From: Nitrososphaera sp.
GTDB lineage: Archaea; Thermoproteota; Nitrososphaeria; Nitrososphaerales; Nitrososphaeraceae
Direction: 5' to 3'
NCBI GenBank assembly: GCA_036003785.1
Contig: DASYSB010000047.1
Location: forward strand, 18,800-82,799
DNA length: 64,000 nt
In this document: positions 6,230 to 61,940 of the stretch, one piece after another
Layout of the letters: every line of letters starts with the position of its first letter
Position numbering within the stretch: position 1 is the stretch's first letter
Notes under the pieces: generated by a model
What the model saw: only the letters and a program-made list of their open reading frames with translations
Databases searched by the model: none
Told to the model about the DNA's origin: nothing
Made by a program: the position numbers and the translations under genes

Positions 6230-6333
6230 TAGCTTTGACGTAATCTGCTGAGAAAATGTTTAGAAACTAAACAATCAATATACTATCGACCAATACATTA
6301 AATTTATCTGTTCGTGTATGGAAATTACCACGT

Positions 6334-7860: not shown

Positions 7861-7920
7861 TGGCAAAATAAAACTAAGGAATGATTTATTTACCAAACTG
7901 TAAATTAGAGTTCTGTACCA

Positions 7921-8376
7921 ATGAGGCTAAAGCTGGAGGACTGGACTGCGCTTGCATCCCTCGGGCTCTCTGCAATGTTTGTCGCCCTTTTACTCTCCTT
8001 TTATAACTTCTTGATTGGGCCGGAAGGCAAGGGCCCAGACCGCGTGGTTGATCCCGGAAGCCTCATACTCCAGCTTATCTTTATCTCGGCAGCGCCCAGT
8101 CTGGCGCTGGCTGGTTTTGTTTTTGGGTTGAACAAAACTTACGGCACCCGGTTTGGCGGCATGTTCTTGATAGTAGCAGGCATCGTAATGATAGCAGGCA
8201 TGGTCGCCGGAATCCCAATGTTGGCAAGAATCCAACACCAGTATATCATTGGCGTTGTAGGCGTGGCACCGTACTTTTTTATGGCAGCCGGTGCTGGCGT
8301 GGTTGCGGTTGGTGCATACCTGGTCGCCGCATCAAAAAGAAAGCCCATTAGAAGCGACTTGGATGACCTTCATTGA
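7921..8376 (+). CDS. Four-TM membrane protein
   Basis: Four hydrophobic segments; overlaps the wecB start. Confidence 0.75.
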   Translation: MRLKLEDWTALASLGLSAMFVALLLSFYNFLIGPEGKGPDRVVDPGSLILQLIFISAAPSLALAGFVFGLNKTYGTRFGGMFLIVAGIVMIAGMVAGIPMLARIQHQYIIGVVGVAPYFFMAAGAGVVAVGAYLVAASKRKPIRSDLDDLH

Positions 8377-11795: not shown

Positions 11796-11934
11796 ATTTC
11801 CTGTCCTTTTTCTGGTTCTGCTCTATATAAGGTAAAACGATGAAATATCGAGAGCGACTTTACTACATGGCCGAACATAATGACATCAATAATATCTCAA
11901 CGGTTGACTGTAACCGCTTGTCTGTGTACGTGCA

Positions 11935-12640
11935 CTACTTCAAGTTTTTTATATATTCACGCGTCCAATGGAACCTTTGAATTTTCACTAGTGGAATTAC
12001 CTGCTGAAAGTCTTTTCGTTTGCCGACAATAACGTTAGCCAGCTGCCGGACGTTGTCAAATAGAATGTTTTGGTAAGTATGCTTCTTTGCTTTGTAATTC
12101 ACGGCTGCATTAAAGTTCAGGCTAATTCTCTCAATCAATTTCTTGGCAGTTGCAGGCTTGAGTCTCGAGTGGTAGTTCTCTGTCACAATAAAATCAGACT
12201 TTTTCAGTTTCTTTTCTTCAAGCATTTGTAAAACTGAAAGGTCGACTAGCCACCTAAAAAGCTCTTGGATGTCATACACAAGTGGAGTTTTGGACTGTGC
12301 AAGCTCGTGTAAAAAGCCAATTGTAGGGTCAAGTCCAATAGCATTAATGTCCTTTCTTATTTCTGATTCTAATACCGCATAGCCATAATTCAGCAATGCG
12401 TCCACTTCATCTGAAGCATTCATGTTCCAAGAGTACGACTTGCTTCCGCGCTTTGCAAGATGAAACTCTGGGCACAGCTTGTTGAATATCTTTGCAAGGA
12501 CGCTCCAATAGTAGGTAGCGATTCGGCCTTCATAGTTGAGCAGGTTTTTTTATTGACTGTGAGCAATTTTCAAAGTTAATTCTTTCGCGGATAAACACTT
12601 TCTGAACTTCTGCAATCGTTATCCCGTCATAATATCGAGC
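11935..12640 (-). pseudogene. cas1: Stand-alone Cas1 (casposase-like), 5'-truncated and frameshifted
   Basis: LLNYEGRIATYYW, NASDEVDALLNYGYAVLESE, GLDPTIGFLH, LVYDIQELFRWLVD. The frame is open to 12549. After a +1 A in an A7 run (12545-12551), RYYDGITIAEVQKVF continues in another frame to ~12637. The N-terminus is absent. Confidence 0.9.
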
Positions 12641-12801
12641 CTCCTTCGGCCCTTATGGGATTGAACATGATTGTTGAAAGCTACGGCGGAAGAAATTATT
12701 CATTTTCAGAAATTTCAAAAATGCTAACGGCAGCTGGTTTTAAGAGGATTGAGAAAAAAACGTTGGCGACACCAGCAGAATTGATTATCGAATACAAGTA
12801 G
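12637..12801 (+). pseudogene. C-terminal stump of a SAM-dependent O-methyltransferase
   Basis: Manual translation PSALMGLNMIVESYGGRNYSFSEISKMLTAAGFKRIEKKTLATPAELIIEYK* matches the typical class I O-methyltransferase C-terminus. No SAM-binding N-terminal part is present. Confidence 0.62.
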
Positions 12802-12941
12802 GTGTAAAACATATTCTGTCCAATCTTTGTGCGTTCATCCTAACTCCAATGGGAAGCAATTTATTGTTAATCAATCTTGTTAACTAACAAAGTACCATCT
12901 AACTTAATTACCATGGTTTTGCAACTAGTGAAGAAGCGGGA

Positions 12942-13100
12942 ATGCCGGCGCGATGGCGATGTATGAAATGCAAGATTGAATTCAACGGCGACGGTGCCTC
13001 AAGGCATTATTTGGCTCATCCAGCTCACAAGTTGGTAAAGCTGCCTCCAGCACCCAAAGTGATCAGCTCCTCAAGCTTCAAGGGAGGAATGGTTGCTTGA
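12942..13100 (+). CDS. 52-aa C2H2-like zinc-finger microprotein (paralog of 25496-25633)
   Basis: MPARWRCMKCKIEFNGDGASRHYLAHPAHKLVKLPPAPKVISSSSFKGGMVA; 25/45 ungapped identities to the copy at 25.5 kb. Confidence 0.78.
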   Translation: MPARWRCMKCKIEFNGDGASRHYLAHPAHKLVKLPPAPKVISSSSFKGGMVA

Positions 13101-13167
13101 CATGCTCGAATAAGTCGATTTGCAAGTTTTCTGCAGCGATGACAAAGGTAGAAACAGAAAAGAATCC

Positions 13168-14523
13168 TTAATTCTTGAGTATTGACTCGATCTTGGCTAC
13201 AACCTCATTCGGACTTCTGCCAAAGATTATTATCATTGGCTCTTTGCCAATGTCGCCTTTGTGGTAAACGACGTCTGCTCTTGGGTTCTTTCTAAGAGCC
13301 TGGAGAATTCCCCAATACACGCTCGATCCTTCCTTCTTCTTGATGCTTTTCGGCTCTTTGCTCCTGTCGTAGCTTGACACTGAAAATAATGATCTACACA
13401 ATTTCACAAGCCGGTCGTCGAACCTTATGTTAATACCCGCTCTCATACTAGGGTTAATTCGCATATGCGCAAGTATTGCTGATGCAACATGGCGCGACGC
13501 ACCAAACTCGATGTATGATGCCGGCACTGCGGTGTTACCGATCTTTACTATTCTTCCTCGTACTCCTGCGACTTGTGATATATCTTCCGCGGCAGGCAGC
13601 GCATATACAAAATTCGTTTGAGTTTCAGGTATCAAACGGTAAAAGCCTTCAAGCGTGCTGACATGTTTGACAGCCTGCTGTAATTCTGCCAATACTTGAT
13701 AACGATTGGCATCGCGATAAATGGCAGAAAGTGGATTTGTAACAGGCAAACCTCTACCCACGTTGACAGCATTTTTGATAGCAACATGGACATACTCGTT
13801 GGCCATTTTGCACGCGTCGCCCACTGATATGCCTCTGGCAAGGTATGCGGTGACAGCAGAGGAAAAGTTGCAACCAGAACCATGGCTTTCTTTTATCCTT
13901 ATCCTTGGGTTTGTTAATTTAGTTACCCTGCCTTTGCTGTCAAGCAACAGGTCACTAACGTTCAGAGCCCCGAAGTGGCCACCTTTTACAATGACATTTT
14001 CCGCTCCAAGTCCTCTTATCTTCCTGGCTGCCTCGATACCATCATGTTCGGTCCTGATTTTTATTCCTGCAAGTTTTTCGGCTTCAAACCTGTTGGGGGT
14101 TATCAGCGTGCTCATTGGTAACAATTTTGAAATAAAGGAATCAAACGCGCTGTCGAGAAGCAATTTTGCGCCTGTACCTGCCGCAAGGATAGGGTCAAGC
14201 ACGATTGGAACTCTTGATTTCTTTAGAGATCGATGCACCGCGTCTATTATCTGTCTACTATAGACCATTCCTATCTTAATGGCATTAGGCCGCATGTCTG
14301 TCATGACGGAGAGGATCTGCTGTTCTATAATAGCTGGAGAGACTTCGAATATCTCGGCCACGGTTTTTGTATTCTGCGCGGTTATCGCTGTTATAGCGGT
14401 GCACCCATACACGTCAAGTGCAGAAAACGTCTTGAGATCAGCTTGTATGCCTGCCCCAGCTCCAGAGTCACTGCCTGCTACTGTTAACGCAATCTTCAAG
14501 CAGAGTGATAAAATGTGAAACAC
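13168..14523 (-). CDS. thiD: Bifunctional HMP/HMP-P kinase-thiamine phosphate synthase ThiDN
   Basis: LTVAGSDSGAGAGIQADLKTF, TPNRFEA, HGSGC; C-terminal ThiN domain LIPETQTNFVYA...FGASRHVA...GKEPMI. Confidence 0.95.
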   Translation of the reverse strand: MFHILSLCLKIALTVAGSDSGAGAGIQADLKTFSALDVYGCTAITAITAQNTKTVAEIFEVSPAIIEQQILSVMTDMRPNAIKIGMVYSRQIIDAVHRSLKKSRVPIVLDPILAAGTGAKLLLDSAFDSFISKLLPMSTLITPNRFEAEKLAGIKIRTEHDGIEAARKIRGLGAENVIVKGGHFGALNVSDLLLDSKGRVTKLTNPRIRIKESHGSGCNFSSAVTAYLARGISVGDACKMANEYVHVAIKNAVNVGRGLPVTNPLSAIYRDANRYQVLAELQQAVKHVSTLEGFYRLIPETQTNFVYALPAAEDISQVAGVRGRIVKIGNTAVPASYIEFGASRHVASAILAHMRINPSMRAGINIRFDDRLVKLCRSLFSVSSYDRSKEPKSIKKKEGSSVYWGILQALRKNPRADVVYHKGDIGKEPMIIIFGRSPNEVVAKIESILKN

Positions 14524-14613
14524 TTATTCAACCTAGCGACGATTATGTCCCGGCAGACATTTCACTTGAAGTCCACCACATTGGATTTATAGCTCTTAGT
14601 TGAATTCACAGTA

Positions 14614-14883
14614 ATGCCGATCGATATTGATGAGTTCAAAGGTGGCAAGTCGTCAGACTCATTAATACAAGTAGTAAAGGAATTTCTTCAAAGCCACCGC
14701 GACAAAGCATATCTTGCAACCGAACTATTCGAAGTGATGAAAGGTCGCAAATTAGTATCGCCCGCTGACTTGTTTGAAATCCAGAATGTGCTACACATCT
14801 TAAGCCGGGAACGGACCATCGTTAGCAAGCATGTCGAGACCAAGGAAGGCTTTCAAGCATTCTATAGCTTTAACGAAGGCTGA
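14614..14883 (+). CDS. Small winged-helix-like protein (paralog of 58122-58385)
   Basis: MPIDIDEF...FLQSHRDKAYLATEL; shares its N-terminal pattern with the 58122 ORF. Confidence 0.7.
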   Translation: MPIDIDEFKGGKSSDSLIQVVKEFLQSHRDKAYLATELFEVMKGRKLVSPADLFEIQNVLHILSRERTIVSKHVETKEGFQAFYSFNEG

Positions 14884-14982
14884 GCTTATAATACGCCACC
14901 TGCTTCAAGGCGGCGAATCAAGCTTGACATCTTTTACAGGAAGATAATCAGATAATCTTCTTTAGACTTGTTGGCCTCTATA

Positions 14983-15111
14983 ATGGAGATGAGCAAGAAA
15001 GAACATGATAAGATAACGGGAATGAATCGTAGGAGCAAAGATCAAAAAGAAGAGGATGAAAATCCAACTAACATTGGTCCAGGAGTGACAGAGGAATTTG
15101 AAGACGCCTAA
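14983..15111 (+). CDS. 42-aa charged microprotein
   Basis: Manual translation: MEMSKKEHDKITGMNRRSKDQKEEDENPTNIGPGVTEEFEDA. Confidence 0.4.
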   Translation: MEMSKKEHDKITGMNRRSKDQKEEDENPTNIGPGVTEEFEDA

Positions 15112-15166
15112 TTCGGCTATACTTATCGGACTCCGCGGGCTACAAAAACCAATTTTATCCGCTAAT

Positions 15167-15316
15167 TCAGTCAAAAGGTACTTCGTACATCTTTTTTCTA
15201 TGGCCATACATCTCTTGATGGTCTTCTACGTCTGACATAAACAGAAAGACCGTCTTACATTCCATACAGCAATAGATGGTATCAAGTCGTTCAGCCGCAA
15301 TTGCTTTTTGTTCCAT
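15167..15316 (-). CDS. 49-aa C2H2 zinc-finger microprotein
   Basis: Manual translation: MEQKAIAAERLDTIYCCMECKTVFLFMSDVEDHQEMYGHRKKMYEVPFD (CxxC-x12-H-x5-H with F at the canonical position). Confidence 0.72.
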   Translation of the reverse strand: MEQKAIAAERLDTIYCCMECKTVFLFMSDVEDHQEMYGHRKKMYEVPFD

Positions 15317-15405
15317 AGTCTTCGTGCTAGGATTTGTTATATATCAAGAGCTTGGTGGAAGAAGCTAGAAGATTTTTCTGTATTAACACGACATTCTTTC
15401 GCCAA

Positions 15406-17280
15406 CTAGCCCTTTTCTGATTCTGTTGCATTCTCCAAATCCTTTACGGCATATGTTGATAATGGCAGCGTAAAGGAAAATGTCGCACCTTTACCGTCCC
15501 TATTGTTTTCAGCCCATATACTTCCTCCATGGGCTTCCACAACATTTTTGGCAACATAAAGCCCAAGTCCAGTCCCTCTATCGGACTTGGTGGCAAATTT
15601 AGTAAACAGTTTCGGGTAAATGTCGGGGGCTATTCCATGCCCCGAGTCTCTGACGTGAACTACAGCCTGACCGTCCTTTTCTTCCAATTCCACTGCGACT
15701 TCGCCTTCATCAGTGAACTTTATAGCGTTGCTGAGAAGATTCGAGATAACCTGAAAAATTCTTTCTCTATCTCCGTCAATCATTACAGCCTTGTTGCTCT
15801 TTGGCTTAAACGTCAGCTGCACGCGTTTTTCTTCTGGAATGACACTGCGCATATCATCCAAGATAACTTTGATCTTTTTGGCTAGATCGATTGGTTCCTT
15901 GCTGAGCTGCAGCGTGTTGCTTTCAATTCTCGAAACTTCCAGGATGTCGGATGAGAGGTTCAGAAGGCGTTTGGCGTTCCTCGTGATCATTTCTATTTCA
16001 GCCTTCCGGACGACTATGTCATCTTTTCCTTATGTCTTGAGTTGTTCCTCCAATGCTTCTGCTATGCCAATAAGCGGCTGAATAGGAGTGCGAAGCTCAT
16101 GAGCTGCTATATTGATGAATTCGCGCTGCGCTCTGTCATGACTCTTTAGTCGTTCGTTTGCGACTTCAAGCTTTGCAGTTCTTTCCTTGACTGTACGTTC
16201 AAGCTTCGAATTCCATCTTGCGACCGTCAAAGCAATACCTACGGCAACCCCACCGATGACCACAGGCACAATAGTGCTCAGGTTTCTTTGCTGCTCTATC
16301 AATAGAGCAATATCGGTTGCAAACGCCTTGGGTAGGCTGAGGTGGAGGCTCATTGCATGTTGGACGCTACCGGTTCCCTGGTCGAACGTGACGGGATTAT
16401 AGGCAATAATAAGAGGGGTTCCTGAGGATGAGTATTCTCCTGTGCCGGAATTTCCAGCAATCGAATCCCGCATAATGCCATTGAATGAATCTTGTTCTTC
16501 ACGGGGAAGATAGGTTGAAAACAGAAGATTTTGTACGTCTTCGTTGAAATAATTCTTTCCCAACAGCGCGTCATTTTGAGTATAGAGGATTGTGCCATCC
16601 CTGTCCATTAGACTCACTGCACTCTGCGTGTCGGGTGGAAGCTGCTCCGTGATAGAATCGCCAAGAGACTTTAGATTCATTGATGCAACTACCACTCCTT
16701 TGAATAAACCACTGCTATCCTGAATGGTCGTTATTATGGGGTAGGCAATGTAAATCCTCGGAACGCCATCTACCGAATCGCGAAGGGGGCTGAAGTATGG
16801 CTTATGACTATCTTTCGGATCTGTAAAATATGGTCTATCAGTTCTATCAGCGCCATAATATTGGTCGTAGACTTTTTGATCTTCAAACGCTCCTGCCCAC
16901 TGCAGCTTGCCGTTCTCATCGATCCAAAAATAGCTGTCTGTAAAACCATCGGTAGACTTTTCCGCCGCATCGATAAGTGGTCGGGCCTGCACGTACTCTC
17001 CGCGCTGTACTAATGGAGCATTTGCTATTATTTCCAAATTGCTTTTGATTGATTCAAGTCTATTTTCTAGGGATTTAGACAAATCATATGCCTGTATCCT
17101 AGCATTATTTTTCAGGTCGTCAGTAGCTGCTAATGCAATCTTTTCGGATGTTAGAATCGAGTATTGGTATGATAATAGAGAAAGTCCGATCGCTACGGCT
17201 CCAATAATTATTAACGGGATCGCGGTACGAAAAGTTGGGCTACGCGATGTCTTGAATGGAACTCGCTGCGAGTCTGACAA
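15406..17280 (-). pseudogene. Cache-domain sensor histidine kinase interrupted by one in-frame TAA
   Basis: TM-Cache-TM-HisKA (FINIAAHELRTPIQP), then TAA at 16030-16032, then 13 in-frame codons (GKDDIVVRKAEIE) joining the HATPase_c ORF (QVISNLLSNAIKFT, DSGHGI, GTGLGL). Confidence 0.9.
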
Positions 17281-17416
17281 TTTCTGATTGCTCTAGTTCA
17301 TTCCTCTTTAATAAATAGACCTGCTAAGGTTTTCCATCAGATGAAACTGCCATCTCAGAATTCAAAAAACAAAAAGACCCAATCATTAGAGAATTTGAAA
17401 GACCTGATCATTTGTG

Positions 17417-17557
17417 TTAGAGAACATAGTTGCAGAGACACACGCGCTTGCCGCAGCATACACACTTTTGGTTTCCAGAAACAAACTCACAATTCTTGTT
17501 ATGTGTTTCACAGAACACCGACCTTCCAGGTTCGATTTCTTTTGCTACCGTCTGCAT
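17417..17557 (-). CDS. 46-aa Cys-rich microprotein
   Basis: Manual translation: MQTVAKEIEPGRSVFCETHNKNCEFVSGNQKCVCCGKRVCLCNYVL (7 Cys plus His). Confidence 0.55.
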   Translation of the reverse strand: MQTVAKEIEPGRSVFCETHNKNCEFVSGNQKCVCCGKRVCLCNYVL

Positions 17558-17692
17558 GTATGCTTCTAATCAATCGTTTGGTTAATCTAAAGGGCAAGCT
17601 AATTTAGACACGCAAGCTAGCTAACTTTGTGCACCCATGCCTCAGTATTTCTTCGTTATTTGAGAAAATGCATAGATTATTAACATGAGATC

Positions 17693-17707
17693 CTCTAATC
17701 ATTAGAG
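17693..17707. promoter_or_regulatory. Palindromic operator candidate upstream of NCS1 permease
   Basis: CTCTAAT-C-ATTAGAG perfect 7-bp arms between a TTATTAA TATA-like box and the TTG start. Confidence 0.4.
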
Positions 17708-17708
17708 T

Positions 17709-19013
17709 TTGGCATTATTCAAAACGCCAGATTGGGGCGTCAAGCCGGTTCAAGACAAACACAAGATGCTTGGCGGCCTGGACTACTTCATCCTGTGGTC
17801 AAGCCTTGGCGTGGGATTGCTCGTCTTCTCTGCCGGATCGTTTCTCTCTGCCGCTAGTTTTTTTGACGCCATGCTTGCGATCGTTGTGGGGTCTATTGCC
17901 GGCTCGATCCTTCTTGCGCTTGCTGGCAAGATAGGGAGCAACCATGGCATACCCTCACTTATATCGATGAGGCCATCGTTTGGCATCAGAGGCTCGTACC
18001 TCCCCGCGACACTGAATGTCATGCAACTAGTTGGCTGGACGACATTTGAGATCATGATAATGGCAAGGGCCGCCGAAATGCTCGCTGGAAATGTAATGCC
18101 TTACTATTTCTGGGCCGCAATATTTGGCGTGCTTGTCGCGCTGCTCGGCATCACCGGGCCACTCAATGTGGCAAGGCAATGGCTTGGCAAGTTTGCAGTG
18201 TGGATAGCATATGGCACCTCTGCAATAATCATCATAACTCTAATCAACTCCACAGATATGGCAGGGCTCGTCTCGTCGCCGGGACAGGGCATGTCGTTCT
18301 TTTCTGCCCTCGACCTTGTCATAGCAATGCCAGTATCGTGGATGCCGCTTGTAGCCGACTACAACAGATTTGCAAAGAAGAGCAAGAGCGCAATGTGGGG
18401 AACTTTGATTGGATTTGCGATGACAAATATGCTCTTCTACTTTGGAGGCGTGCTGATTGGAACGTCAGACATCATTGGCATAGTTGTGGCGATACAGGCA
18501 ATGTTCTTTGGATTCTTGATGCTTCTCCTTATAGTGGACGAGGCCGACAACGCGTTTGCAGACGTCTATTCCGCAGCCCTATCAACTCAGGACATTTTTT
18601 CGAAAATAAACCAAAAGTACCTCATAATCGGATTCACCGCACTCAGCGCGGTACTTGCCATGGTAGTTTCTATCCAAGACTACGAAGTGTTTCTGCTCCT
18701 TATAGGGGCAATTTTTGTGCCGCTCTTTGGTGTTGTGCTCACAGACTATTACATAGTAAGGAAACAAAAATACACAGAGCAGATGCTTTACGCGCGGCAG
18801 AACAAGCTGGGCATCGGCGCGGCTGCAATGGTTGCATGGGCTACTGGAGCCTTGATAAATTATCTGCTATCGCCTCTGTCGCCTATCTACATGGAACAGC
18901 TGCCGGCAATTGGCGCTACAATCCCGAGCCTAGCCGCCGCTTCGCTCATATACCTTGCAATGGTACGTCTGCGTCCACAGAAAAATAAGCCGCTAGCTCA
19001 GAAACTTGACTAA
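17709..19013 (+). CDS. cytX: NCS1-family nucleobase/thiamine-precursor permease (CodB/CytX-like)
   Basis: ~12 TM; SMRPSFGIRGS, QLVGWTTFE, SWMPLVADYNRF, DEADNAFADVYS. Confidence 0.85.
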   Translation: MALFKTPDWGVKPVQDKHKMLGGLDYFILWSSLGVGLLVFSAGSFLSAASFFDAMLAIVVGSIAGSILLALAGKIGSNHGIPSLISMRPSFGIRGSYLPATLNVMQLVGWTTFEIMIMARAAEMLAGNVMPYYFWAAIFGVLVALLGITGPLNVARQWLGKFAVWIAYGTSAIIIITLINSTDMAGLVSSPGQGMSFFSALDLVIAMPVSWMPLVADYNRFAKKSKSAMWGTLIGFAMTNMLFYFGGVLIGTSDIIGIVVAIQAMFFGFLMLLLIVDEADNAFADVYSAALSTQDIFSKINQKYLIIGFTALSAVLAMVVSIQDYEVFLLLIGAIFVPLFGVVLTDYYIVRKQKYTEQMLYARQNKLGIGAAAMVAWATGALINYLLSPLSPIYMEQLPAIGATIPSLAAASLIYLAMVRLRPQKNKPLAQKLD

Positions 19014-19172
19014 ATGGCAGAGCGTCAATTTGACGACTCCTATTATGTGCTTCGCAAGAAGTTTAGCAGCAACGCCAACAGTATCATTATGATTTATCAA
19101 AACTTGGGCAGGCAGAATAGGAAAAAGATTGCGCCTATACTGGCCATCGCAGCGGCCTTGATGCGAAGGTAG
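19014..19172 (+). CDS. Possible 52-aa protein
   Basis: ATG directly follows the permease TAA: MAERQFDDSYYVLRKKFSS...IAAALMRR. No motif. Confidence 0.3.
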   Translation: MAERQFDDSYYVLRKKFSSNANSIIMIYQNLGRQNRKKIAPILAIAAALMRR

Positions 19173-19347
19173 AGGACAAACCGCGACATTCCTATCCTTC
19201 CGAGTGCTCCGGAGAATATACGTAAGAGTCTGTATCCTATCATTACAGACAAAAAGTCAAGGAGTCCTGTACTGGCCGGCCTGAGCACACTTCAAACCAA
19301 CGACATCACAATTAACAAATACGAGTTTCCGTTGCCATATCTTGACA

Positions 19348-19476
19348 ATGGGAACAAGCTGCGAGAATTGCAACCAGCTAGCATCAAGCCTTATAGAATT
19401 CAATTCCGTGCTGCTGTGCCCAGCTTGTTTTGACAAGGAAATCCAGAGGATATCTGCTACTACCATTGACCCGTGA
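19348..19476 (+). CDS. 42-aa zinc-finger microprotein
   Basis: Manual translation: MGTSCENCNQLASSLIEFNSVLLCPACFDKEIQRISATTIDP (CxxC...CxxC). Confidence 0.65.
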   Translation: MGTSCENCNQLASSLIEFNSVLLCPACFDKEIQRISATTIDP

Positions 19477-19564
19477 TTATATCCGCTCGACTGGAGCCAG
19501 CAAGCATGAACAGGAATTCAATTTATAAATAGCAAGAATTGACTGTCCTGTTGCTAGAAATCTC

Positions 19565-20671
19565 ATGAGATTGCTGGAATATCAGGGAAAGGAACTTTTT
19601 GACGAGTATGGAATCAGGATACCAAGCTCGCACCTTGCGCACACTATACAGGAGGCTCGCGAAGGCGGCAAGAAACTTGGCTATCCACTGGTGCTCAAGT
19701 CACAGCTCACAGTCGGCGGCAGGGGCAAGGCCGGCGCAATTGTCAAGTGCAAGAGCGAAGTCGAGCTCGCCTCCAAGTTTAGCGAACTGCTTCATAAGGA
19801 GGTAAAAGGGGAGCTTCCACGCGGCATCCTGCTTGAAGAAATGGCCAACATAAAGAATGAACTCTATCTCTCGCTTTTCCTGAACAGGAGTAAGCGCTGC
19901 TATTCTCTCATATCTTCTGCAGAGGGCGGAGTAGAAATTGAAAGTGCCGGAAACAAGGTAGTGGTTGACGTTCCAATTGACGGCCTGAGCGCGCACACTG
20001 CAGAAGATACTGCGTTCAAGCTGGGGCTAAACGGAAGGACAGTAGTGTCATTTGTTGACTTTACCACAAAGCTCTCAAGGCTAGTAAGTGAAAGAGAAGC
20101 TGAATTGGCGGAGATAAATCCTGTCGCAATTCTCGGCGATGGCTCGCTCATGGCACTCGATGCCAAGGTGATTATTGATGATAACGCGCTGTTTCGCCAC
20201 CCCGAGCTGAAAAAGTACGAACATGTATCGGAACTTGAAAGACAGGCAGAGGTTAGCGGCTTTTCGCTTGTCGAGCTGGACGGCAACATTGCAATCATTG
20301 GCAACGGCGCTGGCCTTGTCATGTCGACTCTTGACATGGTCTCTGATGCAGGTGGTAAGGCAGCGGCATTCCTGGACTTTGGGGGAAGGGCCACGACCGA
20401 AACAATCTACGAAGCGCTCAAGGTGATAAGCAAAATCAAGCGAGTCGAGGCGATACTCGTGAACCTCTTTGGCGGTATTGTCAGGACCAATCTTGTCGCG
20501 CAGGCAATACTAGATGCGTACAAGAACAACTTGGTAACCGTCCCGGTGTTTGCAAGGATCTCCGGTGCCGAGGCGGAGAAGGCAAGAACAATGCTCAATG
20601 GCAGCAAGGCGAAGCTCTACAATACTGTCGAAGAAGCGATACAGGCCGCAGTAGCGGCCGTAAACCGGTGA
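19565..20671 (+). CDS. sucC: Succinyl-CoA synthetase beta subunit
   Basis: LLEYQGKELF, GGRGKAG, AEINP, DAK...DDNALFRHP, GNGAGLVMSTLD, NLFGGI. Confidence 0.97.
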   Translation: MRLLEYQGKELFDEYGIRIPSSHLAHTIQEAREGGKKLGYPLVLKSQLTVGGRGKAGAIVKCKSEVELASKFSELLHKEVKGELPRGILLEEMANIKNELYLSLFLNRSKRCYSLISSAEGGVEIESAGNKVVVDVPIDGLSAHTAEDTAFKLGLNGRTVVSFVDFTTKLSRLVSEREAELAEINPVAILGDGSLMALDAKVIIDDNALFRHPELKKYEHVSELERQAEVSGFSLVELDGNIAIIGNGAGLVMSTLDMVSDAGGKAAAFLDFGGRATTETIYEALKVISKIKRVEAILVNLFGGIVRTNLVAQAILDAYKNNLVTVPVFARISGAEAEKARTMLNGSKAKLYNTVEEAIQAAVAAVNR

Positions 20672-20675
20672 TCAA

Positions 20676-21602
20676 ATGAAAACAGTGGAACGAACATTCA
20701 ACATTTTTGAGATTCTTGAAGGAAGCAAGGGCGACAAGGACTTTGGCAAAAAGCCGGTAGTAATACAGGGCATAACAGGGAGTTACGGTTCTACACACAC
20801 TCGGCTTATGAAGGCGTACGGTACAAACATTGCGGCAGGTGTGACTCCAGGCAAGGGCGGACAAGACTTTGAAGGTACACCCGTCTATAACACGATGGCA
20901 GAGGCAGTCAAGGCTTCAGGTGCACAGATATCCGGAATGTTCGTCCCCGCGCCATTCTTCCTAAAGGCAGCCCTCGAAGCGCTTGACAGCGGCATCAAAT
21001 TGCTGATTGCGATACCCGAGCATGTTCCGATAAGGGATTCGATAAATGTTCTAGAGCATGCAAGGAAGAAGGGTGCAAGGATGGTTGGACCAAACACCCC
21101 CGGAGTCATTGTGCCAGAAGTGATGAAAGTGGGCATCATGCCGGCCCAGCCCTTCAAGGCTGGAAGCACAGTGGTATTCTCGCGCAGCGGAACACTAATG
21201 TACGAAGTTTCCTACAATCTTACAAACAAAGGATACGGGCAGAAGCTGTGCCTTGGAATTGGCGGCGACCCCATAAACGGGACGAACCTTATAGAGGCAT
21301 TCGATCTTATCCGGGAAAGAAGCGATGTAGATTCAATCGTTGTCGTCGGAGAAATAGGCGGCGACGCGGAGGAGCAGCTTGCAGAATACCTCATACAGAC
21401 GTCCTTTAGCAAACCGGTCATCGCCTACATTGCAGGAAGGGCAGCTCCCAAGGAAAAGAGGATGGGCCACGCCGGCGCCATAGTGTACGGTAACTATGGT
21501 TCCGCAGAGTCAAAAGCGGCCAACTATGCAAAGGCCGGCGTGCCTGTGGCAAAACGCCCGGCAGAGGTGCCAGAGCTCTTGGCTAAGAAGCTACGAAGAT
21601 AA
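20676..21602 (+). CDS. sucD: Succinyl-CoA synthetase alpha subunit
   Basis: [44 protein letters not shown]. Confidence 0.97.
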
Positions 21603-21615
21603 ATTCAACCGACTG

Positions 21616-21801
21616 TCACTTGCCGGTCTCTTCTACCTTGCTGCCGGAGTCGCTCCCATGTGTGACGTTGGCAGTAATATTTTCATCTACTGTCATGTTG
21701 TCTCTTTGACCTTCCTGCCCCTTGTTGTAGACTTCCGCAAAGCCTAGAAGGAGCCCCAAGACCGCGAATGTCAGGATAAATAGTACCACGCTTGACCGCA
21801 T
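21616..21801 (-). CDS. Small single-TM protein
   Basis: N-terminal hydrophobic helix with a polar tail. Confidence 0.55.
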   Translation of the reverse strand: MRSSVVLFILTFAVLGLLLGFAEVYNKGQEGQRDNMTVDENITANVTHGSDSGSKVEETGK

Positions 21802-21880
21802 ACCTAAAGGATCTTGGCAATTGATTCATAAACATTTGGTTGCACTACGGCGTTCCGGGGGCATCAATATATATTGAAAA

Positions 21881-22072
21881 TTGCTGCTCAGAAAGGCAAT
21901 GTCGTCTGAACTGCGCTTTTGCGACCGGTGCATGCAAAAAACACACCACGAAATGATTGAGGATCCTGAAACCATCTACACTTACAAGCGAAGAAAGCTT
22001 TACAAATGCAAGGAATGCGGACACAAAAGCTACAGGCGGGGATTGCGCCCAAGCGCAGAATCAGTCTACTGA
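21881..22072 (+). CDS. Small zinc-ribbon protein
   Basis: RFCDRCMQKTHH...YKCKECGH. Confidence 0.7.
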   Translation: MLLRKAMSSELRFCDRCMQKTHHEMIEDPETIYTYKRRKLYKCKECGHKSYRRGLRPSAESVY

Positions 22073-22077
22073 AGGAA

Positions 22078-22908
22078 ATGCATATGGACGATTCAATTCC
22101 AAGAGCAATTACAAAGCTAAAGAACGAGTTTGTGCAAACGTACAAGGGTCATAGCCTTCTTCGCGAAATCCTGCCTCTGTCGCATTCAAAGTACCTTCCA
22201 ATTGACGATCACTTGCTGCACTCTCTACACAGATTTGCAGCGGCCAATCCGATTTACGTAAGATCGTATGACTTAGAGATTTCTGGTATAACCTGTAAAG
22301 TTTACGAAGGCGATATCAACAGCTACTGGCTGAGCAGCAAGAAATACGATACAAGCTACCAACCCTTTTACCCTACGTGGATGCTGTCGGCCTTTGCGCT
22401 TGCGCACGGCGCAAAGTCGCTCGGCTTTGAACAACTAGTTGACGTGGGATCCGGTGATGGCCGGATAGCATATTGCGGTCGGTTACTTGGAATGGAGTCA
22501 CATGGAGTGGAGATTGATCACGACCTTGTGCAGCTCCAAGATACGATCTCGTCTACTACCGACGTTAGGTACAGCTCGATAAGGGCCGACGCTACGCGCT
22601 TTGACTATGGGACTTTGAAACTCTCCCGGCCAATGTTCTTCATCTCTGGGCTACCTGAGATGGGGGAAATGCTAGCAGAGAGCGTAATAAAACAGGTCAG
22701 GTCGATAGAAGCGCTAAGGCACAGCGCCGGTTTCAACTTTATGGGCAGCCACATTATGAAGACTTTCTCGAGAGACAAGACCGGTTGGGGATGGGGGAGT
22801 GTCATTGCTAGTCACGACTTAGAGCTTGCAGGAACAGTCACGCTGCCGACACTTTGGACCACTGATCAAGTGGTCGACACGGCCTATGTCTATACAACGC
22901 TCAGATAG
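22078..22908 (+). CDS. Class I SAM-dependent methyltransferase-like protein
   Basis: LVDVGSGDGRIAY motif I, HGVEID, ADAT; start taken at the ATG after the Zn-ribbon stop. Confidence 0.75.
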   Translation: MHMDDSIPRAITKLKNEFVQTYKGHSLLREILPLSHSKYLPIDDHLLHSLHRFAAANPIYVRSYDLEISGITCKVYEGDINSYWLSSKKYDTSYQPFYPTWMLSAFALAHGAKSLGFEQLVDVGSGDGRIAYCGRLLGMESHGVEIDHDLVQLQDTISSTTDVRYSSIRADATRFDYGTLKLSRPMFFISGLPEMGEMLAESVIKQVRSIEALRHSAGFNFMGSHIMKTFSRDKTGWGWGSVIASHDLELAGTVTLPTLWTTDQVVDTAYVYTTLR

Positions 22909-23036
22909 CCATGGACTATGTAACCATTTGATGTAGTTCGCAGTAATGCACTGAGTCAACAGGATTATCTGGATTAGATCACGTTGGCATGTCAAGTACA
23001 TCGCCGTTTCGCCGGAGCGCCAAAATGTAATTTATA

Positions 23037-24110
23037 TTGAACTTGGCGCTGACAAGCAACAGTTTGGCCGAAAACCTTCTGACGATGCTTTTGTGGCTCG
23101 CCGAGCTGACCGTCGCAAGTTTCCTTCTCTCGTACGGAGCCGAGCACTTGTCAAAAAAGTATGGAGCAAAATTTGTCGGCCGCACACTCCTAAGCGTTGC
23201 GACGACCCTGCCGGAGATCGCTATTGTAATTTACGCTGCTGCTGATGGCCTTTATGGAACTGCAATAGGCGCCGGTCTTGGCAGCAACCTGCTAATGATG
23301 ACTCTTGGATTGGCCATAATGATTCTTATAGCAACGACGCGCCTGTCAAAAGCGCCGCTAAAAGGGGTAGATGTTGCCACCTTCAAGCTGGACAAGATTT
23401 TCCTGCTCGCTACAGCAGTGATCAGCGCAGTTCTGTTTATCGACGGCTACAATTTTATCGACGGCATTATCTTTGCCGGCATGTTTGGTGCATACTTGAT
23501 CATGGCCCTCTTGGAGATGAAATCAGAGAACAAAGCGAAAAAAGAGGAAATGTACAAGGCCGATCCACACAAAGTTGTCAAGGTATACGAGGGGCCATCA
23601 GAGAAGGGACCAAGCAGGGAAATGATAAAAGGCATGTTGGCTTTTGGTGCGGGCACCGCCGGCATCTTTTTTGGAGCCTCGCCATTTATCGAGTCGCTTC
23701 AAGGCTTCTCGCTTGAAGTGGGCGTTTCAGTGATCATCCTTGCTGTGATTATTAGCCCGATAGCCGGAGAAATGCCGGAAAAAATATCAATGATGCTCCT
23801 TGCACGCAAGGGGGCAGCGGGGGCATCAATAGCGGTTGCAAACGTCCTAGGTTCAAAGATACTCAACAATACCTTGCTACTAGCGGTAGCAGTATTCGGC
23901 GCGATGTATCACGGCGGCTTTAACACAAACATTGCGCTGAACCCTATTCTGGAATATCAGATGATACTCGTGACGGCAGTGACCATCGGCGCCCTTGCAA
24001 TGATGTTCAAGAAAGAAATCGGACTCAAGGTAGGGATAGTACTTGCCGCTATGTACATCATAAGCCTGTTCATACAATTCCTGTTACCCCAGGATCTGAC
24101 TCTGCATTAA
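23037..24110 (+). CDS. Ca2+/cation antiporter (CaCA, Na+/Ca2+ exchanger family)
   Basis: alpha-repeats SVATTLPEIA...GSNL and GEMPEK...NVLGSKILNN. Confidence 0.9.
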   Translation: MNLALTSNSLAENLLTMLLWLAELTVASFLLSYGAEHLSKKYGAKFVGRTLLSVATTLPEIAIVIYAAADGLYGTAIGAGLGSNLLMMTLGLAIMILIATTRLSKAPLKGVDVATFKLDKIFLLATAVISAVLFIDGYNFIDGIIFAGMFGAYLIMALLEMKSENKAKKEEMYKADPHKVVKVYEGPSEKGPSREMIKGMLAFGAGTAGIFFGASPFIESLQGFSLEVGVSVIILAVIISPIAGEMPEKISMMLLARKGAAGASIAVANVLGSKILNNTLLLAVAVFGAMYHGGFNTNIALNPILEYQMILVTAVTIGALAMMFKKEIGLKVGIVLAAMYIISLFIQFLLPQDLTLH

Positions 24111-24132
24111 AATAATACCCACAACCCCTGCT

Positions 24133-24564
24133 ATGCGGATGCTCTCAAAGATACTTGTGCCCGTAGACGGGTCCGACAACTCATTCCGCGCCCTTGACAA
24201 TGCGATTTTCCTTGCCAAAAGTACAGGAGCGGACCTGACTGCAATACACGTAATAGAAAATCCGCCCACAGTGTATGTCGAGTCGCAGAAATTGCTCAAC
24301 GACCTGCTTGCTAACTATAGGGCCGAGTCGACAAAAATCCTAGACAAGTGCAAGCAGATTGCGGACAAGAGCGGCGTCAAGCTAGAGACTGTAATCGCGG
24401 AAGGAGACGGAGCTTATAACATCACCGGTTACGCGCACAAGGAGAGCTTTGACCTTATAGTCATCGGCAGCCGCGGCCTTGGCAGGTTCAAAGAAATGGT
24501 GCTTGGTAGTGTCTCTAACAAGGTGCTGCACCACACAAAGTGTTCGGTCCTTATTGTAAAATAG
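24133..24564 (+). CDS. uspA: Universal stress protein
   Basis: KILVPVDGSDNS...DLIVIGSRGLG...LGSVSNKVLHH..CSVLIVK. Confidence 0.95.
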   Translation: MRMLSKILVPVDGSDNSFRALDNAIFLAKSTGADLTAIHVIENPPTVYVESQKLLNDLLANYRAESTKILDKCKQIADKSGVKLETVIAEGDGAYNITGYAHKESFDLIVIGSRGLGRFKEMVLGSVSNKVLHHTKCSVLIVK

Positions 24565-24753
24565 TCATAACAAGTTTTCCCACAGGACTACGACAGAGCT
24601 ATCATTTTTGTTGTTGTCTTTTCTTGTTGCCTTGAGTTCTTGCTCGAGTTCGGATTTGCGCGATTCGTGGGTAGAAGTTGAGGCATGCTGGTTTGCTTGA
24701 CTAATGCTCACTACAACACCGCAAATGTTGCATCTTAGCTTCTCTTCGGCCAT
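24565..24753 (-). CDS. Small C2H2-type zinc-finger protein
   Basis: LRCNICG...HASTSTH. Confidence 0.65.
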   Translation of the reverse strand: MAEEKLRCNICGVVVSISQANQHASTSTHESRKSELEQELKATRKDNNKNDSSVVVLWENLL

Positions 24754-24823
24754 ACGGTACGTATTTCTTTACAGGAATATAAAAACAGTAAGCCATTTAT
24801 GACATTGTGGTGGTAGTGAATCA

Positions 24824-25141
24824 ATGCAGATGGAGATTGCTTCTCAAACCGTCTTGGCTCGTTTGAAGAGCTCGTCAGACGAAGGTTCGTCATCGGTTAG
24901 CCTGAATCAGATCAAGATGTGGGTCGTGCCGCAAATGGGGGAGCAAGACCAAGACTACACCATAAACCAAAGCTACTTTGCAACTCTGCTAAACCAGACA
25001 ATAATCGATCTTCTGGCAAAAGGATACATTACTTCCTCTATGCACGACGGTGTAGAAGATGGGGATGCCGAGATGTTTTCCCTTACAGTCAAGGGTGCTA
25101 GATACGTGGAAGAGCTTACAGCTGCAAGCGTCGAGCAGTGA
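24824..25141 (+). CDS. Hypothetical winged-helix-like protein
   Basis: Helical region followed by LLAKGYI...FSLTVKGARYV wing pattern. Confidence 0.62.
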   Translation: MQMEIASQTVLARLKSSSDEGSSSVSLNQIKMWVVPQMGEQDQDYTINQSYFATLLNQTIIDLLAKGYITSSMHDGVEDGDAEMFSLTVKGARYVEELTAASVEQ

Positions 25142-25174
25142 CGACGAAAACATTCAAAAGCAACTAGTAGCTAA

Positions 25175-25495
25175 GTGAGCAATCGTCTGTTGGAGGCATG
25201 TGTAATGACTTCGTCAAAAAAAGAACTGAAAGAGAAAGAAAATCAAGAACGCCTTGCGCGCGCTGTTGAAACCCTCGATTCTATTACAAAGAACAATGAC
25301 ATCCAAAAAAGCATACGAAACATGATAAAAGAAGTGCTCCTTGCACTCAAAGACGAAAAAGGCGGCAGCATGTCGGTAAGGGCGGCCAACGCAATCAGTC
25401 TGCTCGATAACGCGACGCAGAGCCCCCAGATGCAGTCGCACATTCGCACGATGCTTTGGCAGGTAGTGTCGACACTTGAAAGCATAAGAGAATAA
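25175..25495 (+). CDS. UPF0147 family protein
   Basis: RAANAISLLDNATQSPQMQSHIRTMLWQVVSTLESIRE. Confidence 0.9.
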   Translation: MSNRLLEACVMTSSKKELKEKENQERLARAVETLDSITKNNDIQKSIRNMIKEVLLALKDEKGGSMSVRAANAISLLDNATQSPQMQSHIRTMLWQVVSTLESIRE

Positions 25496-25633
25496 TTACC
25501 GCACACTTTTTACCGGCTTGACAGGTGGAGGCAGTTTTTCGAGCTTGTGATTGGGGTTTGCAAGGTAATGCCTAGAAGCACCTTCGCCGCTCAGCACAAT
25601 ATTGCAGTGAACACACCTGTATCTAATCGCCAT
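25496..25633 (-). CDS. 45-aa C2H2-like zinc-finger microprotein (paralog of 12942-13100)
   Basis: Manual translation: MAIRYRCVHCNIVLSGEGASRHYLANPNHKLEKLPPPVKPVKSVR. Confidence 0.8.
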   Translation of the reverse strand: MAIRYRCVHCNIVLSGEGASRHYLANPNHKLEKLPPPVKPVKSVR

Positions 25634-26194
25634 GTCTTACGTGCAAGTGATATAGTATGCACATGGCTAAAAACGCTATGGACATAATACTATAGAAAAG
25701 CCCAAGGATCAACCTACTTTCTAACATTGGGACCCATTTCCGAGAAAACATCCCTAGTTTAGGACGATAGGTGTAAGCAATCAACTTTCAGTCAGAGCAC
25801 GTCAAAGGGATGCGACAAGAATATCTCTAAAACTACATGAATTCCCCACCAGGTAGGTGGACAAAGGTGGGTAGACGGTGGATAGTGTCATGAAATGGGT
25901 CGATGATTGGTGTTTCCGTCGTAATCGTTGTCTGCACCCACGTTTTTTCAACACCAGACCAAAGCGGCTATTGGCAAATGGCACCCCAGCTTCTGGGATA
26001 AGGTCGAATTTATTGATATTCCATCTAGGGGCCCGTGGTCCATAAACTCGGTCATTTCACGCAATCCATGGATTAGACAGGTTTGTCTGGGCCTTCCAGA
26101 CATCTCTTGCAAAGGCAATTAGGTCGACATTGGCAGGTTTCCGGTATCCGAGGCATTTGGATAATCTGAGGATGCCTTGATTACGTGGATATGT

Positions 26195-26216
26195 GAAAGG
26201 TATCAGAAAGGTATCA
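26195..26216. repeat. Tandem 11-bp direct repeat GAAAGGTATCA x2
   Basis: gaaaggtatca gaaaggtatca read directly. Confidence 0.8.
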
Positions 26217-26317
26217 TGTTCCGTTATGGGCACGGATTGAAGCGTGCACGGGAGCTACATACATTTCTCTATAAAGAATGGACGACCAAAAGAGGTATCA
26301 AATAGGTCTACCACTAA

Positions 26318-26608
26318 ATGCAACGTGTCATTATCTCGGTTGCGAAAAGCTACGTTCATAGAGGCCGACGCCTTCGCCATCGGCAGAGCACGAGGAAGAA
26401 ATGGCAGGCCTATTACTATGAGTTGGACCCTGCTGATGGCAAATACAGGATGAAAACACGAAGGGTAAATTGGCTTCAAGCAATGTATTACAAGACGCAA
26501 ATTAGACATCGATACAAGTATTATTGCACAGACTGCGGTTCGGCTGTGTTTGCCTATCTCAAATCTCGAAAACAAGCCCTTGAGTGCCCAATTTGCGGCA
26601 CTCTATGA
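26318..26608 (+). CDS. Basic protein with C-terminal zinc ribbon
   Basis: SYVHRGRR...YCTDCG...ECPICG. Confidence 0.7.
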   Translation: MQRVIISVAKSYVHRGRRLRHRQSTRKKWQAYYYELDPADGKYRMKTRRVNWLQAMYYKTQIRHRYKYYCTDCGSAVFAYLKSRKQALECPICGTL

Positions 26609-26722
26609 TGATTGTCTGAGCGATTAGCCGTCCAGGTGCCCAAGATCTCCATCAGGATGGGAATCAATTTGTGCGTGCTCGGGGGTCTATTCGCTATCTC
26701 CTCTGCCTTTGGCTCCGATGAC

Positions 26723-26753
26723 CTTACCTAATAGGTAGTACCTATTAGGTAAG
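26723..26753. promoter_or_regulatory. Perfect 31-bp nested inverted repeat
   Basis: CTTACCTAATAGGTA-G-TACCTATTAGGTAAG; each arm is itself the near-palindrome TACCTAWTAGGTA. Confidence 0.7.
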
Positions 26754-26766
26754 TTCTTATGTTTCC

Positions 26767-26955
26767 TTGGTGCATACGTCTCGTCCTATGGGCGAGATAA
26801 GATTGAGAGGGTACAAATGCGAACGGTGCTACCACGTTTGGGTTCCTAGGAAACTCGTTGAAAAACCCACAATATGCCCTGCCTGTAAGACCCCTTATTG
26901 GAACAAGCCACGTGCAAAGAAGATTCTGGTGCCGAAGGGCTCTGTGTCTATATGA
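26767..26955 (+). CDS. Small zinc-ribbon protein
   Basis: YKCERCYHVWVPR...PTICPACKTPYWNKPR; likely start MGEIRL. Confidence 0.75.
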   Translation: MVHTSRPMGEIRLRGYKCERCYHVWVPRKLVEKPTICPACKTPYWNKPRAKKILVPKGSVSI

Positions 26956-27089
26956 GGCTGATTTTCGCAAGAAGCCTGGGTTCCGCCCCAAGCAAATTTC
27001 TTGTTGAGTCTCCTACCTCGGTATAAACTGAGAACTGTTTCAAAACATGAGACCAGTTTCTGTGGTGCGGGACATGCTGACAAAACCTT

Positions 27090-27692
27090 ATGTTACCGGG
27101 ACGTCGCAATAGATTCATGCTCGTCAGCGCTGATGGCTCAACCGCACCACCACAGAAAGGAGGAATCGGAGCGACGATTGTGGAGCCTTCGCAACCCCCC
27201 AGTTTGATTGCTATCAATAGCGCCGTTGTAGCAATGTTTGCTCTGATAATATTTAGTAGCATCAGCTTTACAACTCCGATATGGACCCTGAAAATCACGG
27301 AAATCCATGTTGTCATGCTATTTTCCGTCGCATTCTTGCTCTTGGTTGGATACTATTTGAAGATAAATGCTATGAGATATTATCAGCTGGAGCCTGTTAG
27401 GAGAAACTTGGCTCTCAGCGCTCAGACTGTCACCAAGAGCTCAGAGGCTATAGATTCAGCGCTTAAATCAGTAAACGCGCAAATAGCATTAGTCAAAGAC
27501 CTTCTAACGGCAAACATGATTTCAACGAATAAGGCTCAACTTGAAACCTTCAATCAAAGATTGCCGGAAACTACTGAGCAGTTTAAGAAGTTAGTCGAGG
27601 CAACCGAAGTACTCAAGGAAAGTCGTCAAACGTTAGAGCAACATAGACAGAAACTTCTTGGTCTTCGTGGTAACCTATCCCGAATGAAATAA
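27090..27692 (+). CDS. Two-TM protein with C-terminal coiled coil
   Basis: Two hydrophobic helices followed by a heptad-rich region. Confidence 0.62.
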   Translation: MLPGRRNRFMLVSADGSTAPPQKGGIGATIVEPSQPPSLIAINSAVVAMFALIIFSSISFTTPIWTLKITEIHVVMLFSVAFLLLVGYYLKINAMRYYQLEPVRRNLALSAQTVTKSSEAIDSALKSVNAQIALVKDLLTANMISTNKAQLETFNQRLPETTEQFKKLVEATEVLKESRQTLEQHRQKLLGLRGNLSRMK

Positions 27693-27835
27693 TTTTCTGC
27701 ACATAGTGCTCCAAAATAATACCGTCTCCACGAACTACGTTGTGGAGCTACCGCAAAAATCTAACACAAGTCAGAAGTTATGGGTTATGGCATGATGCGC
27801 ACCGTATTAGGGATCAATTTTCTATTAGTGGAAAA

Positions 27836-61749: not shown

Positions 61750-61940
61750 AAATCAATAAACCATTTATTGTCAGATGATCATCGCCACCAGAAAATTCTA
61801 GAGCAAGACTGCCGGCGCAGTAAGCGTACTTATATTTCGGAAAGCCAAGCTAGGCAACGGAAATGAGCTTGAAACAATTCTCTTGCCGCCAGCTAATTCC
61901 ATACGCTCGCAACTCTTTGAAATGAAAATCTATTCTGAGG

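Follow-up and report, generated by a model that had tools for sequence, protein, structure and literature searches.

Which kind of gene lies behind two very short open reading frames (ORFs) with similar translations, and what might its product do? This question is raised by a 64,000-nt stretch of a Nitrososphaera sp. genome (contig DASYSB010000047.1, positions 18,800 to 82,799), referred to below as the window. The initial annotation regarded the two ORFs as an undescribed C2H2-like microprotein family that travels with, or marks, thaumarchaeal mobile elements. Our analysis showed that they are paralogous genes of a single-domain zinc-finger-like microprotein specific to the family Nitrososphaeraceae. 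One of them (copy 2, type B) is a core gene next to fttA, the gene of the transcription termination ribonuclease FttA/aCPSF1, and the other (copy 1, type A) belongs to an accessory clade.

Two similar ORFs define a microprotein family of Nitrososphaeraceae

Translation of the window confirmed the positions of both ORFs (Table 1). BLASTP aligned their products, P0001 and P0002, without gaps and with 25 identities over 43 residues (54.7 bits, E = 6e-18). The 25 ungapped identities of the initial annotation were thus reproduced, over 43 residues and not the 45 given there. As an empirical null, the 779 stop-to-stop frames of 35-90 aa within the window were compared all-against-all. The P0001/P0002 pair scored 57.4 bits in this comparison, whereas the next best non-overlapping pair scored 26.2 bits, and therefore the similarity is well above chance. 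Both copies contain a CxxC knuckle followed by the block GxGASRHYLAxPxHKLxKLPP.

Whole-genome searches found the microprotein in 145 of 151 Nitrososphaeraceae genomes (142 of 148 when the unpublished genomes G137, G115 and G074 are left out), in 101 of the 103 high-quality genomes and in 18 of 18 genera of the family, nearly always as one copy per genome. In a class-wide sample all 39 Nitrososphaeraceae genomes matched, and the other 261 genomes gave just weak matches, with E values of 0.002-0.1 per genome. A HMMER profile searched against 1.84 billion representative proteins returned 21 proteins at E ≤ 0.001, about 14 of which are true small members. Database entries of the family stand under Nitrososphaera or Nitrososphaeraceae and always as 'hypothetical protein'; NTE_02013 from Ca. 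N. evergladensis is an example. The distribution is thus narrow, yet nearly universal inside Nitrososphaeraceae. Both proteins and the 27 aligned members had no significant match in Pfam, and no published description was found by locus tag, by Nitrososphaera zinc finger, or by zinc finger linked to aCPSF1. With no Pfam family, no name other than 'hypothetical protein' and no paper found, the family is undescribed, as first supposed.

The core copy lies downstream of fttA

In 40 of 48 genomes from about 16 genera (39 of 46 without the unpublished genomes G009 and G022), the type B gene immediately follows fttA on the same strand. None of the conclusions rests on the unpublished genomes. The two genes are separated by 47-424 nt, most often by about 65 nt. 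The convergent neighbour on the other side is the UPF0147 gene in most genera. Type B was shown to be the ancestral, vertically inherited, single-copy core gene of Nitrososphaeraceae, and fttA is its ancestral upstream neighbour. For copy 2, the homologues are single-copy, family-wide and fixed downstream of fttA, and such stable core loci are what the initial annotation had named as evidence against its own proposal.

A 22-nt motif, TCCATAGCGTTTTTAGCCATGT, precedes the start codon of copy 2. By-eye alignment of about 50 genomes of many genera indicated that this motif is kept family-wide with minor variants, down to a T-run core. We infer a promoter-like element (B recognition element/TATA), which would also provide the T-run after fttA. 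A plain TATA box would not require such strong conservation, and the motif could combine a promoter with a regulator site or represent the fttA terminator. At its N-terminus, the FttA protein of Nitrososphaeraceae is longer than that of other families in the class by about 40 poorly conserved residues, and tblastn alignments of FttA start at query residue 40-50.

In the remaining 8 of the 48 genomes, DNA is inserted between fttA and the microprotein promoter. The insertion in the window is 2131 bp long, starts 5 nt past the fttA stop codon and has GAAAA (5 bp) at both junctions. It contains small ORFs without Pfam matches, and it is common only to the genome of the window (G000) and G012 (L004, 84% identity). 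Copy 2 does border a patch at 25.5-27.7 kb without Pfam matches, as first described. This patch is an insertion beside a core gene and not an element carrying that gene, and it split the copy from fttA; the proposal that copy 2 travels with or marks a mobile element was not supported. The palindrome noted earlier proved to be a near-perfect 18-nt inverted repeat with a 1-nt spacer (26720-26756, 94% complementary) inside this insertion.

Larger inserts were found in G008 (8.2 kb), G132 (7.3 kb) and G021 (>12 kb); G011, G022 and G053 are also counted among the eight exceptions. The inserts of G008, G132 and G021 carry cupredoxin, ZIP transporter, MsrA, MFS, SDR and DUF5996 genes and no mobile-element hallmark, and no att-like direct repeats were found flanking the 7-8-kb inserts of G008 and G132. 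The short stretch separating the fttA stop codon from the promoter of the microprotein gene (25634-25699 and 27831-27838 in the window; L112, L113 and L114) took up accessory DNA at least two times independently in Nitrososphaera, once as the 2.1-kb insert of G000 and G012 and once as the 7 to >12 kb insert of G008, G132 and G021. Beside the microprotein gene, the latter three genomes retain a diverged remnant of the 3'-terminal ~20 nt of fttA, and their fttA end is recoded with synonymous codons, which suggests integration into the 3' end of fttA. A gene for a ZIP-family zinc transporter in the G008 insert (L112 8985-9719, minus strand) lies about 2.6 kb upstream of the microprotein gene; this is probably a coincidence.

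A non-canonical C2H2-type finger is predicted

The candidate ligands C7, C10, H22 and H29 are invariant, with the spacing C-x2-C-x11-H-x6-H in 27 of 27 aligned members. The classical C2H2 finger (Pfam PF00096 and its clan) has the spacing C-x2-4-C-x12-H-x3-5-H, and the microprotein departs from it on both sides of the first His. An AlphaFold2 model based on the 27-sequence alignment (predicted local distance difference test, pLDDT, 77.8) has strands at residues 4-7 and 13-15, a helix at 16-25 and a strand at 31-34. In the model a hairpin is followed by a helix that contains H22, and H29 comes after the helix. The predicted fold is thus a β-β-α-β, zinc-finger-like one. The protein is basic, with 8 Lys/Arg against 2 Glu, and its tail has the conserved motif KLPPPxKPxK. 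The initial description as C2H2-like holds, and the family adds a new form with non-canonical ligand spacing to the C2H2-type fingers.

Comparisons with known families gave weak matches. None of the 27 members matched a C2H2 model of Pfam at the cut-off, the best being zf-C2H2_OTU1_C and zf-C2H2_11 (E = 0.049). A profile search of all Protein Data Bank (PDB) sequences, including 2lvh, gave only one spurious ZZ match (E = 0.74). Foldseek found nothing at E ≤ 0.001 in PDB and BFVD; its best rows were B-box1, ZZ and AFV1p06, and one row was an uncharacterised 48-aa protein of Nitrosopumilus spindle-shaped virus 1 (E = 0.9). With VIA-align the best Z was 3.9 in the wide search and 4.2 in a second look. 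The B-box1 matches, although at the top, are weak (Z 3.9-4.2, root-mean-square deviation, rmsd, ~2.0 Å over 34-38 residues), and ZZ domains scored Z ~2.9. The ESM Atlas returned only unnamed clusters by features and mostly B-box proteins by shape, with template modelling (TM) scores of 0.63-0.69 by query.

At the sequence level, the family profile matched the multi-finger protein P0029, which Pfam assigns to zf-met/zf-C2H2_jaz, at E = 1.7e-5 (the sum of five stretches). PF12874 (zf-met) is not matched directly by any member. Small C2H2 ORFs from a sister family in the same order were compared by hhalign, with probabilities of 94-96%, and one of these ORFs reaches the cut-off of the zf-met model in Pfam, but the candidates had been picked with the same profile and these figures are partly circular. 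In this sister family (f13, probably Nitrosopumilaceae) the ORFs form two groups, are 35-40 aa long and show canonical C2H2 spacing, and none adjoins fttA.

Proposed function and alternative roles

On balance, and with modest confidence, we favour a reading in which the family consists of the core gene beside fttA and its accessory clade, and its protein is a one-zinc finger that binds nucleic acid, RNA by preference, and may have a role in RNA 3'-end or termination biology. A single Zn2+ would be held by C7, C10, H22 and H29, and the chain would fold into a β-hairpin, a helix and a third strand. Nucleic acid would then be contacted by the invariant GxGASRHY face of the helix together with the basic Pro/Lys-rich tail, at a net charge of about +6. 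RNA is the preferred ligand in this reading, as the zf-met/JAZ-type fingers, which are nearest in sequence, bind RNA, and also in view of the linkage to fttA. The persistence of this linkage suggests the role in RNA 3'-end or termination biology.

Several points weigh against such a role. Zinc binding, nucleic-acid binding and the link to FttA are inferred only. The linkage may be synteny inertia within one family, and the genes of an M50 protease and UPF0147 are often conserved around the microprotein gene too. The gene has its own promoter-like motif and was kept after insertions that separated it from fttA by 2 to >12 kb (8 of 48 genomes), and therefore co-transcription with fttA is not required. 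FttA is universal in archaea, and no comparable small finger gene was found downstream of fttA in 29 loci searched from other families of the class. As noted above, no member reached the threshold of any C2H2 model of Pfam, the structural matches are weak (best Z 4.2), and the hhalign figures are partly circular owing to the choice of candidates.

If the microprotein binds DNA instead, it could be a transcription regulator with a single C2H2 finger and a basic extension, comparable to AFV1p06 or to GAGA-type single fingers. We regard this as possible, at a fairly low probability. Like AFV1p06, the microprotein has a predicted β-β-α core with a third strand (PMC3541406); VIA-align superposed it on 2lvh with Z 3.1 and an rmsd of 2.2 Å over 35 residues, and the protein is basic with a Pro/Lys-rich tail. 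However, this structural score is tied with those of B-box and ZZ domains, the profile search of PDB sequences detected no similarity to AFV1p06, and the N-terminus of the helix consists of Gly, Ala and Ser that are invariant between the paralogues, which is unusual for base-specific readout.

Somewhat more doubtful is a role as a protein-protein module without nucleic-acid binding, in which a B-box/ZZ-like zinc domain and its PPPxKPxK peptide would dock onto a partner such as FttA, RNA polymerase or some other complex. The best structural neighbours, B-box1 and ZZ (Z 3.8-4.2, rmsd ~2.0 Å over 34-38 residues), the mostly B-box neighbours in the Atlas (TM 0.63-0.69 by query) and the conserved proline-rich tail motif speak for it. 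However, all Z values are below the level for trusting a shared fold. In B-box domains (PF00643), two zinc ions are coordinated by seven or eight residues; the microprotein has only the four conserved residues C7, C10, H22 and H29.

Returning to the favoured RNA finger, we also considered a narrower proposal, in which the core microprotein assists transcription termination or the processing of RNA 3' ends as a lineage-specific accessory factor, working with FttA/aCPSF1 as a zf-met-like RNA finger, and the type A proteins are variants of it. In this specific form it appears rather unlikely to us. If the link to FttA is real, it would bring a lineage-specific component into archaeal transcription termination; if it is not, a well-defined new small zinc-finger family and a correction of annotations are still obtained. 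The tight, old linkage to fttA in any case provides a concrete and cheap hypothesis that can be tested in a cultivated organism. The soil ammonia oxidisers of Nitrososphaeraceae are nitrifiers of global importance. The microprotein defined here is specific to this family and present in nearly all of its members, is under strong constraint and contains a C2H2-like finger of non-canonical type.

The accessory copies and the mobile-element proposal

Second copies are present in a minority of genomes, mostly of the genus Nitrososphaera. A tree built from 49 distinct sequences places type A in a single clade (support 97/91) with long branches, whereas the type B branches are very short. Type A was shown to derive from one older duplication that gave rise to a faster-evolving accessory clade. 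Its members lie in at least nine different, mostly ordinary contexts (Table 1). The orthologue on metagenome contig L081 matches the window by blastn just at 12869-13101, which covers the promoter region and the coding sequence, with 80% identity. Type A was shown to be dispersed as a minimal unit of promoter plus coding sequence, about 230 bp long, in differing chromosomal contexts.

Copy 1 lies about 300 nt from a Cas1 relic recognised by Pfam Cas_Cas1, and the statement that it borders a cas1 relic was therefore correct. Both are held by one 1323-bp patch that is absent from the complete same-genus genome G054 (L075), where the DNA that flanks the start of the NTP-transferase gene is 6 bp from the 3' end of ThiD/ThiN. 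No convincing terminal inverted repeats or target duplications were found around this patch. Only one of about ten contexts, that of the present genome, contains a Cas1 relic, and the Cas1 adjacency is a single case.

The proposal that the microprotein travels with or marks thaumarchaeal mobile elements, as a regulator or a defence/anti-defence factor on casposons or integrated elements, could draw on this 1.3-kb indel shared by copy 1 and the Cas1 relic, on the variable type A sites with only promoter and coding sequence in common with the L081 orthologue, and on the repeated uptake of insertions by the spacer between fttA and the core copy. We consider it quite improbable, and for the core copy it is largely refuted, since this copy is single-copy, family-wide and syntenic with fttA. 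The inserts next to it carry ordinary genes (cupredoxin, ZIP, MsrA, MFS, SDR) and no mobile hallmark, and the other type A contexts examined have ordinary genes and no integrase, transposase or Cas1 adjoining the microprotein. A Pfam search for integrases and Cas1 in five genomes with type A found none on the same contig, the nearest in the complete genome being >300 kb away. No homologue was found in IMG/VR (2.9 million viral contigs) or in phage records. Neither recurrent adjacency to integrase, Cas1 or transposase genes nor occurrence on viral contigs, either of which would mark mobile cargo, was thus observed.

Some further observations concern the type A sites. The copy on G005:C62 (L034 472-627, minus strand) has Gln in place of Pro27 and Tyr in place of the ligand His29, and is probably a decaying paralogue. 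In G054 a 2.4-kb patch (L040 3154-5555, compared with 6231-7875 of the window) replaces the 508-aa ORF of the window (6334-7860). Besides a type A copy, this patch contains small membrane ORFs and an ORF resembling KGG-repeat stress proteins. The region from 5 to 13 kb of the window is a variable zone. A candidate type A relic at 61750-61940, a site which is occupied in G005, was rejected, as its alignment was no better than random.

Coding status and start codons

More than 60 orthologous frames were recovered from the protein collection and whole genomes, and none has an internal stop. For type B, the ratio of nonsynonymous to synonymous differences (pN/pS, Nei-Gojobori) was 0.066 over codons 2-36 of 47 distinct coding sequences, with pS saturated at 0.87. 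The variable columns at codon positions 1, 2 and 3 number 15, 7 and 35, so that all 35 third positions vary, and residues 1-36 are almost invariant while the tail is variable. Within type A pN/pS was 0.24, and between copy 1 and its nearest orthologue, on L081, it was 0.16. The ratios are far below 1, the value that the initial annotation had associated with non-coding decay, and the frames are coding. That both ORFs are chance frames or conserved non-coding DNA (an fttA 3' untranslated region or terminator element) has next to no probability and is already refuted by the substitution pattern in the alignments: the ORFs are very short and their annotated starts disagree, but third positions are saturated over a near-invariant protein, no orthologue has a stop, the core is kept while the C-terminal tail varies, and a paralogue at an unrelated locus retains the same protein motif.

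The start codon is ATG, TTG or GTG depending on the genus, always at the same aligned first position, and therefore the start is fixed upstream of Cys7. For copy 1 the true start is M1 and not Met8, which is chosen by gene callers; the L081 orthologue keeps the first 11 residues. The Met8 start was called for several type A proteins (P0003, P0004, P0008, P0010 and P0071; 12942-12962 in the window), with loss of Cys7, and the annotation of NVIE_006590 in N. viennensis covers just 33 aa. Such errors conceal the zinc-finger motif, and genome annotations of Nitrososphaeraceae systematically overlook small proteins or give them a wrong start.

Table 1. Features of the window and related loci (positions are those of the window unless a locus is named)
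Feature	Position	Strand	Basis or remark
Microprotein copy 1, accessory (type A)	12942..13100	+	52 aa, P0001; translation
Microprotein copy 2, core (type B)	25496..25633	-	45 aa, P0002; translation
fttA/aCPSF1, transcription termination ribonuclease	27836..29932	-	Pfam KH_TffA, Lactamase_B, Beta-Casp, RMMBL; synteny
UPF0147 gene, convergent	25175..25495	+	Pfam PF03685, E 1e-26; stop abuts microprotein stop
22-nt upstream motif TCCATAGCGTTTTTAGCCATGT (coding strand)	25661..25682	-	28-49 nt before start codon
2131-bp insertion	25700..27830		blastn against L039, L014, L017 and L013 breaks at 25699/27831
Accessory patch, 1323 bp	11846..13168		holds Cas1 relic and copy 1
Cas1 relic	11935-12640	-	Pfam Cas_Cas1 model positions 184-280 on 11935-12423
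Upstream region of copy 1 with TTAATTA box	12869..12941	+	kept in L081 orthologue, all beyond differs
Type A context, G017 and G018			FMN reductase / HtrA
Type A context, G001 and G005			NIF3 / Tyw1
Type A context, G005			aldo-keto reductase / TPR; homologous to window 60.5-62.9 kb
Type A context, G013			F420 oxidoreductase
Type A context, G054			variable patch of 2.4 kb, flanked by homologues of window 5204-6229 and 7921-8376
Type A, three metagenome contexts			F420 oxidoreductase / DprA; HTH_45 / response regulator; response regulator / glycosyltransferase
Sister-family C2H2 ORF	L069 4130-4246	-	
Sister-family C2H2 ORF	L070 4102-4218	+	
Sister-family C2H2 ORF	L072 1440-1559	-	
Sister-family C2H2 ORF	L074 421-528	+	
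Sister-family C2H2 ORF	L071 4207-4317	-	
Sister-family C2H2 ORF	L073 4084-4188	+	

Comparison with known systems

The zf-met/U1-like fingers (matrin, JAZ) bind RNA and double-stranded RNA. Like them (PF12874; JAZ, PF12171), the microprotein has a CxxC knuckle, the pattern N-I/L-x-hydrophobic-S/T-G-E and then two His, and in both the last His follows 19 residues after the second Cys. However, the microprotein has x11 and x6 with a Pro between the two His, whereas zf-met has x12 and x4-5, and it is a stand-alone archaeal protein of 45 aa, whereas zf-met is a repeat in large eukaryotic proteins. The Nitrosopumilaceae-type C2H2 ORFs (e.g., those on L069 and L073) resemble the microprotein in their WKCxRCN or RCKIC knuckle and a GEG...RHY-like helix, but differ in their canonical spacing, do not adjoin fttA and match the family profile only weakly (E 0.002-0.02 per genome).

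The AFV1p06 family consists of single C2H2 fingers with a third-strand extension (PDB 2lvh) from crenarchaeal viruses and some Euryarchaeota, and a homologue in Thaumarchaeota was not found in the 2013 study (PMC3541406). These proteins are archaeal, about 45-50 aa long, and have a single finger with a β-β-α core and a third strand, as predicted for the microprotein. They have no sequence similarity to it that the profile search of PDB sequences could detect, and they are viral or proviral, whereas the core microprotein gene is chromosomal and syntenic.

The C(P)XCG micro-proteins of Haloferax volcanii are one-domain zinc fingers of <70 aa, many of unknown function (PMC6562870, PMC10716476, PMC11241148). 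They share with the microprotein an archaeal origin and a small, single-domain finger. However, they have two C(P)XCG motifs with four Cys and are zinc-ribbon-like, whereas the microprotein has one CxxC without the Pro/Gly signature, no second Cys pair and two His, and is confined to Nitrososphaeraceae. With respect to the proposed partner, the zinc-finger subunits that accompany CPSF73 in eukaryotes provide a loose analogy to a microprotein acting with FttA.

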